From assembly GCA_964604875.1 (NCBI GenBank), contig CAZSAC010000001.1:30730-94729 (forward strand): DNA of 64,000 nt, written 5' to 3'. This DNA comes from an uncultured Bacteroidaceae bacterium. GTDB taxonomy: Bacteria > Bacillota > Clostridia > Christensenellales > CAG-917. The position numbers and the translations under genes were made by a program. This document shows, piece after piece, positions 13,068 to 54,569 of the stretch (the stretch's first letter is position 1; every line of letters starts with the position of its first letter). Below the pieces are notes generated by a model. That model was not told where the DNA came from, made no database searches, and saw only the letters and a program-made list of their open reading frames with translations.

Positions 13068-14222
13068 TTACCAGTTTTCTGTTATTCTTTTTATAATATC
13101 GGATAAACGAGCTTTCTCTACTGTTTCGTTAGCTAATATATTAACCTCCGCGATAACTTTTCCACCTTTTATTATAACTGCCTTTCCAACAACGTCGCCC
13201 TTTTGGATTGGCGCAGAAACAATATTAGGCAATTCGAAATTTACCTCTATTGCGCCTTCATCTCCTCGTTTCGTAAAAGCTGAAATATTCTTTTCGGGTA
13301 TAAGTTCTATACAAGGTTTACGTCCATTTTTTACTTCGATACGTTGTTCTAAGGGTTGATTGGCAGGATATAATACCCTATTTTCATATGCGCCAAAAGC
13401 ATAGTTAAACATATCGGATATATCTTTAAACCGTGTTTTTGAGTCGGGTTCACCAATTACTGTTGCGATAACACGCATATCGTTGCGTTTTGCCGATGCC
13501 GATAAACAGAACTTTGCCTCAGCAGTAAATCCGGTTTTTCCGCTGTCGCAACCTTTATAAAACCGTATTAATTTGTTTGTATTTGTCATTGTGGTTACTC
13601 GCCCGTCAGGGTGTTGATAGTCTTCCAACCATATTCCGCAAAACTCATAGTAAAGATTATGCGACAAAAGGCTTCTAAGCATAATTGAAACGTCTTTGGC
13701 TGTTGAGTATTGATTCATTGCGGGCAGTCCTGTGCAATTACTAAAAAGCGTATTTTCCATACCTAATTCTTTGGCGCGTTTATTCATCATTTTTACAAAC
13801 CCCGCTTCACTTCCGCCAATTTTTTCCGCCATAACGTGCGCGCTGTCATTTGCGCTCGCAACGACGATTGACTTGATTAAATCGCTTGCCTTATGCTTTG
13901 TATGAGCGTCTAAAAATATTTGCGAACCGCCCATCGCCGCGCTTTCGGGGCTTACTTCAATCTCATCTGTCAGCTTAAACTCGCCTCTATTGATAGCCTC
14001 AAAGCATAGCAAAGATGTCATAATTTTTACCATACTTGCAATTTGAAGTTTCTCGTTTTCATTTTGCTTATATATAACGGTGCCAGTATCAAAATCCATT
14101 AAATACGCCGATTTAGCGCTGGTAGTGATTTCGCTCACGGCAGCAGATGCAAAACCGCTTGAGCCGAATATAACACCAAACATTACGGCTATTGCCGTTA
14201 AAATCAAAACTGTTTTTTTCAT
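13068..14222 (-). CDS. Serine-type D-alanyl-D-alanine carboxypeptidase (PBP5 family, DacB/DacF-like)
   Basis: 384 aa; signal peptide; SxxK (SMVK), SxN (SAN), KTG (GKTGFT) motifs. Confidence 0.88.
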   Translation of the reverse strand: MKKTVLILTAIAVMFGVIFGSSGFASAAVSEITTSAKSAYLMDFDTGTVIYKQNENEKLQIASMVKIMTSLLCFEAINRGEFKLTDEIEVSPESAAMGGSQIFLDAHTKHKASDLIKSIVVASANDSAHVMAEKIGGSEAGFVKMMNKRAKELGMENTLFSNCTGLPAMNQYSTAKDVSIMLRSLLSHNLYYEFCGIWLEDYQHPDGRVTTMTNTNKLIRFYKGCDSGKTGFTAEAKFCLSASAKRNDMRVIATVIGEPDSKTRFKDISDMFNYAFGAYENRVLYPANQPLEQRIEVKNGRKPCIELIPEKNISAFTKRGDEGAIEVNFELPNIVSAPIQKGDVVGKAVIIKGGKVIAEVNILANETVEKARLSDIIKRITENW

Positions 14223-14262
14223 AAATCACCTCTATCAAATAGCTTGTAGATATATGAAATTT

Positions 14263-14841
14263 TTATTCATCAATATATTTTGGCGTTGCAATCTCAAACA
14301 AGCACGAAAATAAAGCGAACAATATACAAAGTATGATGACGTTTATAAGAAAGACCAAAAGCAACTTTTTTAAAACCATTTTAGCCACTTGCCAACATAC
14401 ACTACATTTGCAAGAAGTGTATGGCGAAATTAAGGCTAACGCCGCATTCAGCAATAAAAAAGATGCGATGAAGTTTGGAATATATATAAACAAAATGCTT
14501 CCAAAAACCATAATCGAAAAATCATTAAAGAAAACGCCAAAAGCGCACCCGGCGAACATTCCTAAAATTGAAAATACCAAATAACCAAATATACTTAGCC
14601 AGCGCGATAGCGTTGATAAAAACAAACAGAAATAACATAAAAAAATCAAGCCTAAAAACCAAACAAGCGCTTGTTTGGAATTAAAAACCACTTCGATTTC
14701 ATCAGGAAGATTTATACACAGAATACCAAACACCAACCCAATTAAAAACAGTATAGCGTTTAGGATTATTACCCAACGGTATTCTTTAAAAAAATCACGT
14801 ATAATAAATTCAATATTTTGCTTGGCGTATGCTTTCACCAA
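14263..14841 (-). CDS. Multi-pass membrane protein of unknown function (architecture loosely SpoIIM-like); start codon uncertain (TTG/GTG, no SD)
   Basis: 192 aa with about 5 predicted TM helices; 27 nt downstream of the Spo0A_C gene, same strand. Confidence 0.4.
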   Translation of the reverse strand: MVKAYAKQNIEFIIRDFFKEYRWVIILNAILFLIGLVFGILCINLPDEIEVVFNSKQALVWFLGLIFLCYFCLFLSTLSRWLSIFGYLVFSILGMFAGCAFGVFFNDFSIMVFGSILFIYIPNFIASFLLLNAALALISPYTSCKCSVCWQVAKMVLKKLLLVFLINVIILCILFALFSCLFEIATPKYIDE

Positions 14842-14868
14842 ACAAAATATATGCGCAACTTTTCAGTA

Positions 14869-15213
14869 TTATGCTTGTCTGGCTATGCTTTGCAGAGATA
14901 ATAACGCCGTCATAATGAACTGTTTGTTTGAAGGTTTACCTTTTCTCATATCAATGGTTTCGCCAAACTCGTCATACAAATTATTAACGTCGCCCTTAAG
15001 CCAAGCGGTTGAAATTGCATTTTGTACGTCTTTTTCAATGGCGGCGATTGATTTGTTATATTTATTTGACAGCCTGACATAGCCGGTATATTTTAACGGA
15101 AGCAACTCGTGTCCTTCCATTCCGCATTTTAAAAGTTCCGCCAAATATCTATAGCCCAGTTTATTTGGCACAAAGCCCAACTTTAGTAGGTATTCGGAAA
15201 TTAATTTGTCCAT
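14869..15213 (-). CDS. Stand-alone Spo0A C-terminal (DNA-binding) domain protein, no receiver domain
   Basis: 114 aa; aligns by eye to the B. subtilis Spo0A effector domain (LGYRYLAELL ~ KGYLYLREAI; IEKDVQNAISTAWLKGD ~ VERAIRHAIEVAWSRGN; KGKPSNKQFIMTAL ~ KAKPTNSEFIAMVA); strong SD GGAGGAG; only 96 nt separate it from the spoIVB stop. Confidence 0.85.
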   Translation of the reverse strand: MDKLISEYLLKLGFVPNKLGYRYLAELLKCGMEGHELLPLKYTGYVRLSNKYNKSIAAIEKDVQNAISTAWLKGDVNNLYDEFGETIDMRKGKPSNKQFIMTALLSLQSIARQA

Positions 15214-15309
15214 ATTCTCCTCCGCCCTACTAAGCTAACACATTTTCAATCACGGATTTTGAAACTTTTTGCAAAATAAAATAAAAAATGCTTGAATTAT
15301 ATAAAATTT

Positions 15310-16377
15310 TTAAGCCGCTTCAAAATTTTCTTTGTCTCCCGCGCCCGCCAAAAGCATATTTTCAATATAAATTCCATAGCCTCTTTCAGGATTATTCACA
15401 AAAACGTGAGTAACCGCCCCGATAAGTCTGCCATTTTGTAAAATCGGGCTTCCGCTCATACCTTGAACAATTCCACCCGTTGCAGAAAGCAGACGTTCGT
15501 CTTTTATATTGATAACAAAATTTTTGATTGTTGCCGCCTTGCCGATGCTTACTTTTACTATTTCGATTTCATAGTATTGCGGAATCTCCCCGGAAACTGT
15601 GGAATAAATAAAAGCTTTTCCAATTTCTATTTGGTTGGGAGATGCAATCTCAACCAATTGCGCATTAGCAGGAAGTTCGTCGTATGTCCCGAAAATACCG
15701 CAAATATTGTTTCTGTCAATTCCGCCTATTTTACCGTCTATCATACTAAATGAGCCTTTTAGTTCCCCCGCAACGCCGTCTTGAGCTTTTTTAATCCCCG
15801 TGATTTTACACGAATAAATAAAACCCTTGTTTAAGTCAGACGACAACCCCGTTTGCGAATCTAATATATGGTGTCCAAGCGCGCCGAAGCGTTTGTCTTT
15901 TGTTATATATGTTAGCGTACCTATCCCTGTAATGTTATCTTTAACGCTTATTCCAAGTTTAAATTCTTTTGTCAAAACGTCCTTTGCCAAATTTACGGTT
16001 TTGGTTAAAACCTCTCCATTTCTAATATATTTAAGCGCCGCAACCTTAAAATTGTTTCCATTGATTATTTTGGCAATATCCGTAGAAGAGCGCACAGGTA
16101 ACTCGTTTATTGACATCAAAATATCACCCGGTTTGACATCGTCAGAACTTAACGGCTTGACAACGCCTCTATCGGTTATAACATATGAAGCGCCCGTTAT
16201 AATGACGCCTTCCGTACCGATAGACACACCAACGGGTATTCCGCCCAAATATACTCTCGCGCCGTTAAAGTTTATAGCTTCCGATGACGTGATATCAACA
16301 CTTAATGCTGAAAGTCCGCTAACTGTGGCAAATAAAAAAACAACAAATATTATGGATTTCGTTAAAACGCTTTTCAT
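15310..16377 (-). CDS. spoIVB: SpoIVB signalling serine peptidase (S55) with PDZ domain
   Basis: 355 aa; N-terminal TM, PDZ (GDILMSINE), catalytic region GMSGSPI; recN-spoIVB-spo0A synteny. Confidence 0.9.
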   Translation of the reverse strand: MKSVLTKSIIFVVFLFATVSGLSALSVDITSSEAINFNGARVYLGGIPVGVSIGTEGVIITGASYVITDRGVVKPLSSDDVKPGDILMSINELPVRSSTDIAKIINGNNFKVAALKYIRNGEVLTKTVNLAKDVLTKEFKLGISVKDNITGIGTLTYITKDKRFGALGHHILDSQTGLSSDLNKGFIYSCKITGIKKAQDGVAGELKGSFSMIDGKIGGIDRNNICGIFGTYDELPANAQLVEIASPNQIEIGKAFIYSTVSGEIPQYYEIEIVKVSIGKAATIKNFVINIKDERLLSATGGIVQGMSGSPILQNGRLIGAVTHVFVNNPERGYGIYIENMLLAGAGDKENFEAA

Positions 16378-16385
16378 ATCAAATG

Positions 16386-16414
16386 TAGTGTGATAACGAT
16401 TAAATAAAATATTC
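16386..16414 (-). promoter_or_regulatory. Candidate forespore (sigma-F/G type) promoter for spoIVB
   Basis: Minus strand GAATA-17 nt-CACACTA resembles sigma-G GHATR-17/18-CAHWHTA; the -10 ends 8 nt before the ATG. Confidence 0.35.
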
Positions 16415-16441
16415 GACTTATAAAATCAAATTATTTTGAAA

Positions 16442-18163
16442 TTATTGGTTATTTTCTGAGACAACTTGGCTTTTATATCCGTTAGAATGCGATTTCATTT
16501 CCTTTGCGTGAGGAATTGCGTGCTCACTGTAGCCCGAACCTCCAATAAGCCTTGCAATTTCGGAAATTTGACCATCAAAGTCCAAAAGCGATAATTCGGT
16601 TACGGTTTTTTCGCCCTTAGTAAATTTTTCAATTTTGTAATGTAAATCTGCCATACTGGCAAGTTGAGGAAGATGCGTAACAGCGATAACCTGCCTATCA
16701 CAAGAAATATTAAACAGTTTTTCAGCAACCACTTGAGCGATATTTCCGCTTATCCCCGTATCAATCTCATCAAATACGATAGTAAAGATATTATCTAATT
16801 TGGCAATTATGTTTTTAAGAGCCAACATAAATCGAGACATCTCACCGCCCGAGATAATTTTTGCAAGAGGTTTTTCAGGCTCGCCTACGTTTGCCGAAAT
16901 CAAAAATTCGACCTTGTCAAACCCTAGTTCTCCGCAGTCCTCAATCGATAAATCACCATTATCCGTAAAACTTACAACAAACTTAGAACCTTTCATTCCC
17001 AAGTCGTTGAGTTGTTTATTAATTTCTTTTTCCAAAACCTTAGCATTTGACCGTCTAAGCTTGCTTAGTTTGTCACATTGCAAAAGCAGTTGCTCCGCTG
17101 ATTTTTTAATTTCATTTTCAAGTCGAGCGCACTCATCGTCGGCATTGGAAAGCAAATCAAACTCAGCCTTAGCTTGTTTTAAAAAGTCTAAAGCGGTGTC
17201 AACGCTTCCACCGAACTTTCGAGAAAGCGACCTGACAAGCTCCAACCGTTCTTCTATTTTTTCTGCGGAAAAATCGTCATATTGTAATTTATCTAAAATT
17301 TCTTCCAAGCTTTCAGAAATATCTTTTAATTCAATTTTTACGCTATCTAATCTTTCAACAAAACTTCCAAGTTGGTTATCAAACTCGCCCGCAATTGAAA
17401 GCATATTTTTTGCCTTATTCAACAAAGCGATAGCAGAAAGACCTTCAAAATTACCATTAAGCATTTCTTTACTGTCGGAGATAGAATTTACGATTTTTTC
17501 CATATTACGGAACTTTTTTCTTTGAGACAATAACTCGTCTTCCTCGCCAACAATTAAATCCGCTTTTTCCAGCTCATCAATTTGATAAGCCAAAATATCC
17601 AGTTTTCTTGCTCTATCGTCAGCATTTCCAAATTTATTATATTTTGATATCAGCTGCTTATATGTATAATATAAAGTTTTTACTTTTTCGATTTCGTTGC
17701 TAACGGCTTTCCCGCCGAAATTATCTAAAAGTTGTATATGCGAAGACGTGTTTAAAAGCGATTGATGCTCGTGCTGTCCGTGAATATCGACCATACGTTG
17801 CGTCAATCCTTTAAGCATTCCCAGTGTTGTTGTGTGTCCGTTAATTCTACACTCATTTTTACCGTTTATGCTCATAACACGACTTAATATCAATATTTCT
17901 TCAGCTTCAACGCCTATTTCAGTCAAATAATCTAAAACTTCAGAATTTTGATATTCTTCAAATACCGCCTCAACATAAGCGTTTTCTTCTCCAAAACGAA
18001 TTAACGTTTTATCAGCTCTTTCGCCCAAAACAAAGTTTAGAGAATCAATTATAATTGATTTTCCAGCGCCTGTTTCACCGCTTAATATGTTAAGACAGCA
18101 TCCAAACGATGCAGTCAAATTTTCTATAAGCGCTATGTTTTTTATGGTAATTTGTTTAAGCAT
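16442..18163 (-). CDS. recN: DNA repair protein RecN
   Basis: 573 aa; Walker A GETGAGKS, long coiled coil, signature SGGE, Walker B FDEID. Confidence 0.95.
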   Translation of the reverse strand: MLKQITIKNIALIENLTASFGCCLNILSGETGAGKSIIIDSLNFVLGERADKTLIRFGEENAYVEAVFEEYQNSEVLDYLTEIGVEAEEILILSRVMSINGKNECRINGHTTTLGMLKGLTQRMVDIHGQHEHQSLLNTSSHIQLLDNFGGKAVSNEIEKVKTLYYTYKQLISKYNKFGNADDRARKLDILAYQIDELEKADLIVGEEDELLSQRKKFRNMEKIVNSISDSKEMLNGNFEGLSAIALLNKAKNMLSIAGEFDNQLGSFVERLDSVKIELKDISESLEEILDKLQYDDFSAEKIEERLELVRSLSRKFGGSVDTALDFLKQAKAEFDLLSNADDECARLENEIKKSAEQLLLQCDKLSKLRRSNAKVLEKEINKQLNDLGMKGSKFVVSFTDNGDLSIEDCGELGFDKVEFLISANVGEPEKPLAKIISGGEMSRFMLALKNIIAKLDNIFTIVFDEIDTGISGNIAQVVAEKLFNISCDRQVIAVTHLPQLASMADLHYKIEKFTKGEKTVTELSLLDFDGQISEIARLIGGSGYSEHAIPHAKEMKSHSNGYKSQVVSENNQ

Positions 18164-18164
18164 T

Positions 18165-18617
18165 TTATAAAAGAGATTTAAGTTTCTCGACAGTATCCTC
18201 TACTGCGCTCCTGTGCTTTATCATAATTAGAATTGTGTCGTCGCCTGCTATACAACCCATAACATCGGATAATGACATTTTATCTATTAATGCAGCCGCA
18301 GAGTTTGCGCTACCGCTTAAAGTTTTGATAACAATAAAATTTTCAGAAAAATCTATCGACAAAACCGACTCTCTAAAAAGATTTAAAAGCTTATCTGACG
18401 TTTTATATTCCTGTATTTGTGGTTGGGAATATTTATAGCCCTTGTTGGCTGTCATTGTTTTGATTAGTCCAAGCTCCTTAATATCGCGCGAGACTGTGGC
18501 TTGTGTGACAACATAGCCCTCTTCTCTTAATGCTTCAGCAAGCGCCTCTTGCGTTTCGATTTCACGCTTAGATATAATCTCGACCAGTTTTAATTGTCTT
18601 GTACTGCGCGCCATCAT
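18165..18617 (-). CDS. argR: Arginine repressor
   Basis: 150 aa; winged-helix VTQATVSRDIKEL and C-terminal GTIAGDDT-like core (GCIAGDDTIL). Confidence 0.92.
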   Translation of the reverse strand: MMARSTRQLKLVEIISKREIETQEALAEALREEGYVVTQATVSRDIKELGLIKTMTANKGYKYSQPQIQEYKTSDKLLNLFRESVLSIDFSENFIVIKTLSGSANSAAALIDKMSLSDVMGCIAGDDTILIMIKHRSAVEDTVEKLKSLL

Positions 18618-53853: not shown

Positions 53854-54429
53854 CTACCTTAATTTACTGAATAAATCCTCTACCGCTCTAGTCCTATGAC
53901 TTACCGATTGTTTTTCGATGTTGCTTGCTTCGCCGAATGTTTTTCCAAGCTCGTCAACAAAAAATACGCTGTCATAGCCAAATCCGTTAAAGCCGCGTCT
54001 GGAACGGGTAATCTTTCCGTGGACTGTGCCCTCTCCAAAAATATAGTGCCCGTCGGGATAGAACATAACCAGTACCGACATCATATACGCGCTTCTGTCT
54101 GAAAAATTTTCCATACGTTTAAGCAACAGCTGAATGTTTGCAATATCATTGTGGATTTCGCCTGCATAACGCGCGGAAAGCACGCCCGGTTCACCATTTA
54201 AAGCGTTAACAACCAATCCGCTGTCGTCGCCAATTACAGGGATATCAACAACTTTGGCAACAGCTTGCGCCTTAACCAAGGCATTTTGGAAGAAAGTAAT
54301 GCCTTTTTCTTGAACGGTAATTTTAAGACCATAATCGGCTAAAGTAAAGACCTTATGCCCCATAGGCTCTAAAATGTTTCTTAATTCATTTATCTTATGA
54401 TCATTCGTTGTCGAAAGTAAAATTTCCAT
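53854..54429 (-). CDS. rdgB: dITP/XTP pyrophosphatase (RdgB/HAM1 family)
   Basis: 191 aa; TTNDHKINE, GDDSGL, FGYDSVF, SHR motifs. Confidence 0.9.
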   Translation of the reverse strand: MEILLSTTNDHKINELRNILEPMGHKVFTLADYGLKITVQEKGITFFQNALVKAQAVAKVVDIPVIGDDSGLVVNALNGEPGVLSARYAGEIHNDIANIQLLLKRMENFSDRSAYMMSVLVMFYPDGHYIFGEGTVHGKITRSRRGFNGFGYDSVFFVDELGKTFGEASNIEKQSVSHRTRAVEDLFSKLR

Positions 54430-54461
54430 ACTTTTCCCTCCATATTTTAACCCTTACTATA

Positions 54462-54489
54462 ATTCTATGTTAAAAAATTAATTTGTCAA
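54462..54489 (-). promoter_or_regulatory. Candidate sigma-A promoter for rdgB-phosphoesterase
   Basis: Minus strand TTGACA-16 nt-TAGAAT. Confidence 0.5.
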
Positions 54490-54518
54490 TAGAACTTTAG
54501 CAAAAAACCTCCATTCCT

Positions 54519-54569
54519 TTGTCGAAAAATGGAAATTAATGGTAATTTTTTATTCTAATTGTCGAAAAA
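54519..54569 (+). promoter_or_regulatory. Two identical 11-mers ttgtcgaaaaa, 40 bp apart, each containing the Spo0A-box heptamer TGTCGAA
   Basis: Exact copies at 54519-54529 and 54559-54569, just upstream of the rdgB promoter candidate and downstream of the spoIVA terminator. Confidence 0.25.

Follow-up and report, generated by a model that had tools for sequence, protein, structure and literature searches.

A receiver-less Spo0A orthologue in the ancestral spo0A slot of a clade of uncultured, mostly gut-associated Clostridia

Introduction

Reviews describe all endospore formers as entering sporulation via Spo0A that is phosphorylated on a conserved aspartate (PMC11210211, PMC6136694; Galperin et al. 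preprint 10.1101/2022.02.25.481979), and 107 of 118 Spo0A-positive genomes have a single spo0A gene (10.1101/2022.02.25.481979). The canonical protein (TIGR02875, PF00072 plus PF08769; Bacillus subtilis P06534, Clostridioides difficile CD1214) consists of a receiver and a DNA-binding effector domain. Here we describe a gene for a protein of 114 amino acids (aa), the short gene, that lies in the spo0A position and encodes the effector domain without a receiver. It was found in 64,000 nucleotides (nt) of contig CAZSAC010000001.1 (positions 30,730 to 94,729, assembly GCA_964604875.1), from an uncultured bacterium of the GTDB lineage CAG-917; this whole stretch is referred to as the window. An NCBI name for such receiver-less proteins already exists (“Spo0A C-terminal domain-containing protein”). 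A literature search found no published receiver-less Spo0A orthologue at a spo0A locus, and no published pseudo-receiver form.

Several described systems share features with the short protein. N-terminal deletions of B. subtilis Spo0A (sad67) are reportedly constitutively active; in sad67-type deletions, as in engineered or proteolytic C-terminal fragments, the effector domain is freed of the inhibitory receiver. All of these come from the laboratory and have the canonical recognition helix, whereas the short protein is natural, lineage-wide and altered in that helix. The isolated Spo0A DNA-binding domain binds legitimate targets unphosphorylated (PMC3485338; Grimsley 1994 and Ireton 1993, as cited in PMC10294663), and its constitutive activity is textbook knowledge. 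Phages encode truncated, receiver-less spo0A homologues (Schwartz et al., mBio 2023, PMC10294663), which also have the effector domain only and likewise would not need host signals, but the short family is chromosomal and lies in conserved housekeeping and sporulation synteny. Aspartate-less and pseudo-receiver atypical response regulators act without phosphorylation (PMC4395418). They resemble the short protein as two-component output proteins that would be free of phosphorylation control, although they retain the receiver fold that is deleted in the short family.

A gene for the effector domain only

The short gene and the sequences directly before it are as follows.

14869..15213, minus strand: receiver-less spo0A orthologue, an ATG-started open reading frame (ORF) of 114 aa with a complete Spo0A_C effector domain only
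15217..15223, minus strand: Shine-Dalgarno sequence GGAGGAG, read off the sequence and followed by AAT and then the ATG (3 nt spacing)
15214..15309, no strand: spacer of 96 nt between spoIVB and the short gene, with in-frame stops and too small for a receiver domain

The product of 14869-15213 consists entirely of the Spo0A effector domain, which is complete. Pfam Spo0A_C is its sole domain (2.9e-17, 63 bits, profile positions 1-100 of 104), which bears out the whole-length likeness that had been drawn by eye in the original prediction; canonical proteins score 110-140 bits with the same profile. The model for the full-length Spo0A equivalog, TIGR02875, aligns to the short protein at positions 149-250 of 262 only and gives 54.3 bits, below the cut-off of 200. 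The protein begins exactly at effector helix A, and the N-terminal receiver with Asp56 and the acidic pocket is absent. Unlike canonical Spo0A, it thus lacks the site for phosphorelay or kinase input.

The AlphaFold2 model has six helices and a predicted local distance difference test (pLDDT) score of 89.7. In a Foldseek search its only significant PDB matches are the Spo0A effector domains 1FC3 and 1LQ1, with a template modelling (TM) score of 0.75-0.82 by query length (about 0.8, like the canonical effector fold) and a root-mean-square deviation of 1.7-2.6 Å over about 108 columns. A search with the family profile matches the same two solved domains at about 1e-19. Like canonical Spo0A, the short protein keeps the equivalent of E213, W224, G227, F236-G237 and K-P-[ST]-N.

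The ORF, its Shine-Dalgarno sequence and the 96-nt gap after spoIVB read just as the original prediction gave them, and we agree that the gap leaves no space for a receiver or a remnant of one. In-frame stops lie 8 and 13 codons upstream of the ATG, and the spoIVB stop shares the frame; the upstream translation reads *KFYIIQAFFILFCKKFQNP*LKMC*LSRAEENM, with stops as asterisks. An N-terminal extension of the short gene is therefore impossible. No receiver match was found in the 64-kb window by tblastn with full-length B. subtilis Spo0A, the sole match being the short ORF (query residues 150-253). The C-terminal part of the query agrees with the 1LQ1 chain, and the query is 58% identical over the whole sequence to the canonical Spo0A of contig L089.

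The ancestral spo0A slot

Three genes lie upstream of the short gene.

15310..16377, minus strand: spoIVB, 355 aa, Peptidase_S55 (2e-72), TIGR02860 (300 bits)
16442..18163, minus strand: recN, 573 aa, within the ancestral argR-recN-spoIVB-spo0A order
18165-18617, minus strand: argR, directly preceding recN

On the minus strand, the window encodes spoIVA and the order spoIIIAA-AH-nusB-folD-xseA-ispA-dxs-tlyA-nadK-argR-recN-spoIVB-short gene. The 3′ side continues with a gene for a 192-aa membrane protein, then dacB-like-lysA-M50-scpA-scpB-ftsK/spoIIIE-like gene. This is presumably the B. subtilis-type order around spo0A. Contigs of two related genomes carry a canonical gene with a receiver and Spo0A_C in the same place: L088 has spoIVB, the canonical gene, then deoB-punA-dacB-lysA-M50-scpA-scpB, and L089 has dxs-tlyA-nadK-argR-recN-spoIVB followed by canonical Spo0A. 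The short gene occupies the ancestral spo0A slot, with recN and spoIVB as its upstream neighbors, as first proposed.

The genes spoIIIAA-AH, spoIVA (640 bits) and spoIVB had been called intact in the window, and they are. Relatives in the short-gene clade also have a spoIIGA-sigE-sigG cluster. With all of these genes intact, the developmental programme still seems to be in use.

Conservation of the short gene in relatives

We searched for relatives in one genome per GTDB species, and 114 species-level genomes encode a relative; the truncation is thus shared by relatives, a point that the original prediction had left for checking. The best 80 of the 114 species loci were fetched. All 80 are metagenome-assembled genomes (MAGs), including one closed chromosome of 1.53 Mb (CP091734.1), and are labeled Christensenellales, Christensenella sp. 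UBA..., Clostridia bacterium, CAG:917, CAG:1138, CAG:475, Ca. Faecicola and Ca. Limadaptatus. The protein database contains 27 relatives, each of 68-119 aa and with Spo0A_C alone. The contig index has no exact match to the window protein.

The short gene has spoIVB no more than a few hundred bases away in 70 of the 80 loci. Of these, 20 share the layout of the window, with spoIVB upstream and co-directional; in the other 50 (among L026-L084) the short gene has been inverted with respect to spoIVB and dacB and converges on spoIVB. The membrane-protein gene is itself inverted in L028, L036, L042 and L046, and the adjacency of the three genes is kept throughout. A subclade of termite-gut MAGs (L018-L020, L023-L025) has the short gene away from spoIVB; in L018 it is found beside genes for a collagen-repeat protein, a melibiase and a ParA-like ATPase. 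No receiver-coding sequence was found near the short gene in any of 84 loci (80 species loci and L001-L004, four extra contigs of one species; 6-10 kb searched). In nearly all loci stops occur a short way 5′ of the conserved start.

RecN aside, the short protein is better conserved than any other in the neighborhood: its relatives have a median of 59% identity to the window protein, versus 40% for SpoIVB, 52% for DacB and 50% for LysA from the same loci; RecN has a similar median of 56%, from nine loci only. The ratio of nonsynonymous to synonymous substitution rates (dN/dS) is 0.00-0.18 in pairs with unsaturated dS. The short-family alignment (A1) has 27 invariant columns, K61, Q64 and N65 among them. 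The short gene is real, old and under strong purifying selection across the clade.

A phage origin of the short family was considered and rejected, based on conserved chromosomal synteny and the low identity (only 20-30%) of true phage matches in INPHARED; no family members were found in IMG/VR. The single “phage” match at 64% is a mislabeled bacterial fragment, MT835614.1 1-13799 (L090), titled “UNVERIFIED: Bacteriophage sp.”. Its gene order is argR-recN-spoIVB-short spo0A-membrane protein-dacB-M50-scpA, and its short product is identical to that of the L007 species.

Pseudo-receiver relatives and loss of the receiver

An exhaustive profile search of 1.84 billion representatives recovered 6167 with Spo0A_C at E<=1e-3, in stand-alone, tandem (3-4 domains) and canonical forms. 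P0049 (454 aa) and P0050 (394 aa) have four and three tandem Spo0A_C domains, respectively, without a receiver; these might be covalent oligomers that stand in for receiver-mediated dimerization.

Among the closest longer proteins is a family of about 255 aa (P0203, P0201, P0199, P0206, P0077 and others; alignment A4). Two of its members could be located on long contigs, in the same slot after spoIVB.

L085 6001-6774: pseudo-receiver Spo0A gene (P0203)
L087 6001-6822: pseudo-receiver Spo0A gene (P0201)

With X for the family gene, both contigs have the order argR-recN-spoIVB-X-membrane protein-deoB-punA-dacB-M50-scpA-scpB. Pfam finds no Response_reg in the N-terminal ~135 residues of these proteins, even at E<=10. 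AlphaFold2 predicts a confident (beta-alpha)5 fold for this domain, and its Foldseek matches are receiver domains and response regulators. The alignments show S-N, S-Q or S-K in place of the acidic pair at B. subtilis D10-D11 and no Lys108 region; the Asp56 equivalent is invariant. Based on the predicted receiver fold, the replaced acidic pair and the missing Lys108 region, we classify the modeled N-terminal domain as a pseudo-receiver. The family resembles the short family in slot, in flanking genes and as its nearest clade in the effector tree, but it keeps the receiver fold of about 135 aa and an ERNIRN recognition helix.

The original prediction had called for a Spo0A_C phylogeny. In a neighbor-joining tree of 458 effector domains (112 columns, no bootstrap values, and so indicative only), the short family is essentially monophyletic, forming one clade of 137 leaves of which 133 have the family motif, and the pseudo-receiver family in the spo0A slot is the next clade out. 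Identity of RecN to the window protein is graded, at 50-64% within the short clade, 43% in pseudo-receiver loci and 35% in L089. The position of the pseudo-receiver family in the tree, its occupation of the same slot and the graded RecN identities suggest that the receiver decayed in situ and was then deleted.

An altered recognition helix

The recognition helix of the window protein is IEKDVQNAISTAW (residues 59-71). The original prediction pointed out this region but missed that it departs from the canonical form, both arginines of ERAIRH being replaced. The short family has an invariant EKD[IV]QN (EKDVQN in the window protein) versus canonical ERxIR[HN], and residues E60-K61-x-x-Q64-N65 align with canonical E213-R214-x-x-R217-H/N218. 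In B. subtilis numbering, E213 is kept and the changes are R214 to K, R217 to Q and H218 to N. ERxIR[HN] occurs in nearly all of the proteins with both receiver and effector domains that we examined; the exceptions are M or V in place of Ile in a few proteins and K in place of the first Arg in one. In the 1LQ1 complex E213, R214 and R217 are said to contact bases of the 0A box. In the TGTCGAA box, G2, C4 and G5 are specifically contacted by Spo0A (PMC3485338). As the arginines of the helix are invariantly replaced, it is plausible that the operator of the short protein differs from TGTCGAA. In the region corresponding to B. subtilis 224-240 the short protein keeps W, G, [DN], F-G and T, giving the motif W-x-x-G-[DN]-[IV]...F-G-x-T; we take this region to include the sigma-A-activating region.

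Perfect 0A boxes are found elsewhere in the window.

54408-54567, plus strand: three exact extended 0A boxes TTGTCGAAA within 160 nt (reading TTTCGACAA on the minus strand)

Only five exact extended boxes occur in the entire 64 kb. The three perfect boxes within 160 nt show that canonical-type 0A sites exist in the genome. Two of the three are intergenic, after the spoIVA terminator and before a Ham1/rdgB-type gene (53854-54429), 5′ of its TTGACA/TATAGT-like promoter; the remaining one lies at the 5′ end of the gene itself. The cluster fits either the short protein being the sole copy or the presence of a second one.

Other box-like sequences were noted in relatives. Upstream of spoIIGA in L001 and L002 (~640-1090 and ~720-1320) there are 2-3 direct repeats of about 24 nt with ATCGA[CT][AG]TTT cores. 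These cores are only near-matches to the 0A box (ATCGAyA type); they precede spoIIGA-sigE-sigG in a species that has the short Spo0A. One subclade (L031, L033, L044, L045, L047, L051, L080) has a TTGACA -35-like sequence followed within 3 nt by a conserved TTCGNCA, some 110-125 nt 5′ of the point where the window start codon aligns. TTCGNCA, which complements the degenerate 0A box TGNCGAA, occurs 17 times in 81 upstream regions, versus about 9 expected, in loci that are mutually related; the site could be autoregulatory.

Transcription signals and the neighboring membrane protein

Two signals flank the short gene, and two further genes lie downstream of it.

15296..15323, minus strand: putative sigma-A-like promoter TTGAAG-16-TATAAT, 10/12 in a consensus scan, overlapping the end of spoIVB about 80 nt before the ATG
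14813..14850, minus strand: 15-bp hairpin directly after the short-gene stop (-17.9 kcal/mol, z = -3.15)
14263..14841, minus strand: multi-pass membrane protein, 192 aa, no Pfam or NCBIfam family
13068..14222, minus strand: dacB/dacF-like D-Ala-D-Ala carboxypeptidase (Pfam Peptidase_S11 and PBP5_C), opening the dacB-lysA-M50-scpA-scpB block

No terminator-like site was found on the minus strand between spoIVB and the short gene, so read-through from spoIVB is possible. No Rfam elements occur in 14000-16500. The TTG/GTG start of the membrane-protein gene lies within the hairpin, after which comes a U-rich stretch; the hairpin could be a terminator or an attenuator. In the clade with the inverted layout, upstream regions examined by eye have a TTGCCA-type -35 and an extended -10, e.g. 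TGCTAATAT. The motif TATGACAAAA is conserved upstream of the short gene in that clade. By eye it fits a -35 element for the divergent membrane-protein gene, in a sigma-E-like promoter with the form TCATAT-N14-CATAxxxT; it may equally be a Spo0A-type operator, from comparison of TGTCATA with TGTCGAA.

A dacB-lysA-M50-scpA-scpB type block is also downstream of the slot in L001-L004, L085, L087 and L088. A gene for a membrane protein of about 190 aa adjoins the short gene in 72 of 80 species loci, based on jackhmmer, and is also beside the slot in L001-L004 and in the pseudo-receiver contigs L085 and L086. Relative to the short gene it is downstream and co-directional, sometimes with a 4-nt overlap, or divergent, and a sigma-E-like promoter can be seen by eye near its start codon. 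No Pfam or NCBIfam family was found for the protein even at E<=10. Its gene holds the position before deoB; L089 has a Pfam-recognized SpoIIM comparably, before xerD-deoB. From this position and the by-eye promoter shape, the membrane protein is possibly a very divergent SpoIIM. We give the identity as a possibility because comparison of profiles with the Pfam-recognized SpoIIM gives no homology support (hhalign probability 3.9%; the match of the hidden Markov model to the sequence is weak and compositionally biased).

Predicted mode of action and alternatives

We see an even chance that the short gene product is a phosphorylation-independent Spo0A orthologue with activity set by its abundance. 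The spo0A receiver would have been lost completely across a large clade of Christensenellales-type MAGs, which are uncultured and mostly gut-associated Clostridia, leaving a six-helix effector domain with a helix-turn-helix and a partly conserved activation region. This protein would bind DNA and regulate transcription without phosphorylation, since the receiver that exerts the inhibition is gone. Its activity would track the amount made, by transcription from its own sigma-A-type promoter and possibly also by read-through from spoIVB. Neither histidine kinases nor a phosphorelay would be involved, and the operator possibly differs from TGTCGAA. We infer constitutive activity, dosage control, a role as master regulator of sporulation and the lack of another, full-length Spo0A. 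With the short form retained at this locus by strong selection in more than 100 species, the bacteria may enter sporulation with no need for a phosphorylation signal of the usual kind.

A second Spo0A copy is probably absent from these genomes, because the ancestral slot is occupied, sister lineages had already lost the phosphorylation chemistry there and single-spo0A genomes prevail (107 of 118). We advance more tentatively, and at somewhat less than an even chance, the broader claim that a whole order-level clade, with at least 114 species of gut Clostridia, has no phosphorylatable Spo0A and runs endospore development by a dosage-controlled, receiver-less Spo0A with a re-specified helix, the pseudo-receiver lineages being a stage in the loss.

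Several points weigh against a phosphorylation-independent Spo0A orthologue here. Canonical Spo0A~P dimerizes via the receiver domain, and with this domain gone cooperative binding lacks an obvious route. With both recognition-helix arginines replaced, binding to canonical 0A boxes is uncertain; the window has no excess of 0A boxes (7 observed versus 8.4 expected), and neither do the regions 5′ of the short gene in 81 loci have an excess of canonical boxes. The receiver search spans the window and 84 loci, and a canonical Spo0A elsewhere in the genome is possible. Most Christensenellales MAGs are predicted to be non-sporulating by SpoMAG in a machine-learning survey (PMC12536801). The hosts of the short gene are uncultured, and sporulation in them is a prediction from their genes. 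Moreover, a constitutive master regulator on a sigma-A-type promoter would need further control, and none was found.

It is rather unlikely that the protein was repurposed, such that classical sporulation control was lost or remodeled and the short protein binds another operator and regulates something else. The recognition helix, invariantly EKD[IV]QN and not ERxIR[HN], would suit this, but the W-x-x-G-[DN]-[IV]...F-G-x-T motif is common to canonical Spo0A and presumably marks the sigma-A-activating region. The displaced short gene of the termite-gut subclade also fits, although spoIVB is tightly linked in 70 of 80 species. The low Pfam Spo0A_C score (63 bits versus 110-140), the lack of canonical 0A-box enrichment upstream of the gene and the SpoMAG predictions (PMC12536801) are consistent with a new role as well, whereas the many sporulation genes that are intact in the window and in relatives argue for the old one.

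An accessory copy is unlikely. A canonical, phosphorylatable Spo0A would be encoded elsewhere, and the short protein would be a competitor, anti-activator or dosage modulator at Spo0A-type operators. Paralogues of spo0A are found in 11 of 118 Spo0A-positive genomes (~10%; 10.1101/2022.02.25.481979), and stand-alone and tandem Spo0A_C proteins are common (the 6167 representatives at E<=1e-3). But the short gene is in the ancestral slot, so the full-length gene must have moved while the truncated copy stayed, in more than 100 species, and sister lineages are already without a phospho-acceptor pocket at the same locus. The three perfect extended 0A boxes at 54408-54567 would suit a Spo0A of canonical specificity; no gene with a receiver and Spo0A_C is present, however, within 6-10 kb in 84 loci or in the 64-kb window. 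In a weak test, none of the best 120 of 2130 matches to P0213, the nearest canonical Spo0A, could be traced to short-gene contigs.

A split response regulator, in which a receiver or pseudo-receiver protein encoded elsewhere gates the effector domain in trans, is highly improbable. Nothing supports it directly; the pseudo-receiver lineage kept a non-phosphorylatable fold for some time, which implies a role apart from phosphorylation, but no receiver-like ORF is near the short gene in any locus and we know of no trans receiver partner of Spo0A. Misassembly, a frameshift or a decaying spo0A remnant can be dismissed with near certainty, as no point in support was found and the same architecture occurs in 114 species that were independently assembled in many projects, with dN/dS of 0.00-0.18, its own Shine-Dalgarno sequence, an intact fold and in-frame stops in the 96-nt gap to spoIVB. 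The interpretation in the original prediction is partly supported: its structural and evolutionary claims are solid, and its functional ones (bypass of the phosphorelay, or competition with a full-length copy) are inferences, with binding to canonical 0A boxes made less likely by the invariant helix change.

Significance

JGI annotates two members of the short family as the response regulator, and pipelines that score “spo0A present” by KEGG or Pfam count short genes as ordinary spo0A. Predictions of sporulation for abundant uncultured gut taxa can therefore mislead. If there is a second copy, the short protein would be an accessory protein. If there is none, it is the sole Spo0A-type regulator in organisms that keep spoIIIA, spoIVA, spoIVB, spoIIGA, sigE and sigG. 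Should a phosphorylation-independent Spo0A indeed operate here, the receiver-less and pseudo-receiver forms would indicate that the phosphorylation input layer is dispensable for sporulation, and the clade would be a natural system in which to study kinase-free timing of sporulation entry. If, in addition, the clade has no phosphorylatable Spo0A, its endospore programme would be the first natural one to be entered without two-component input.

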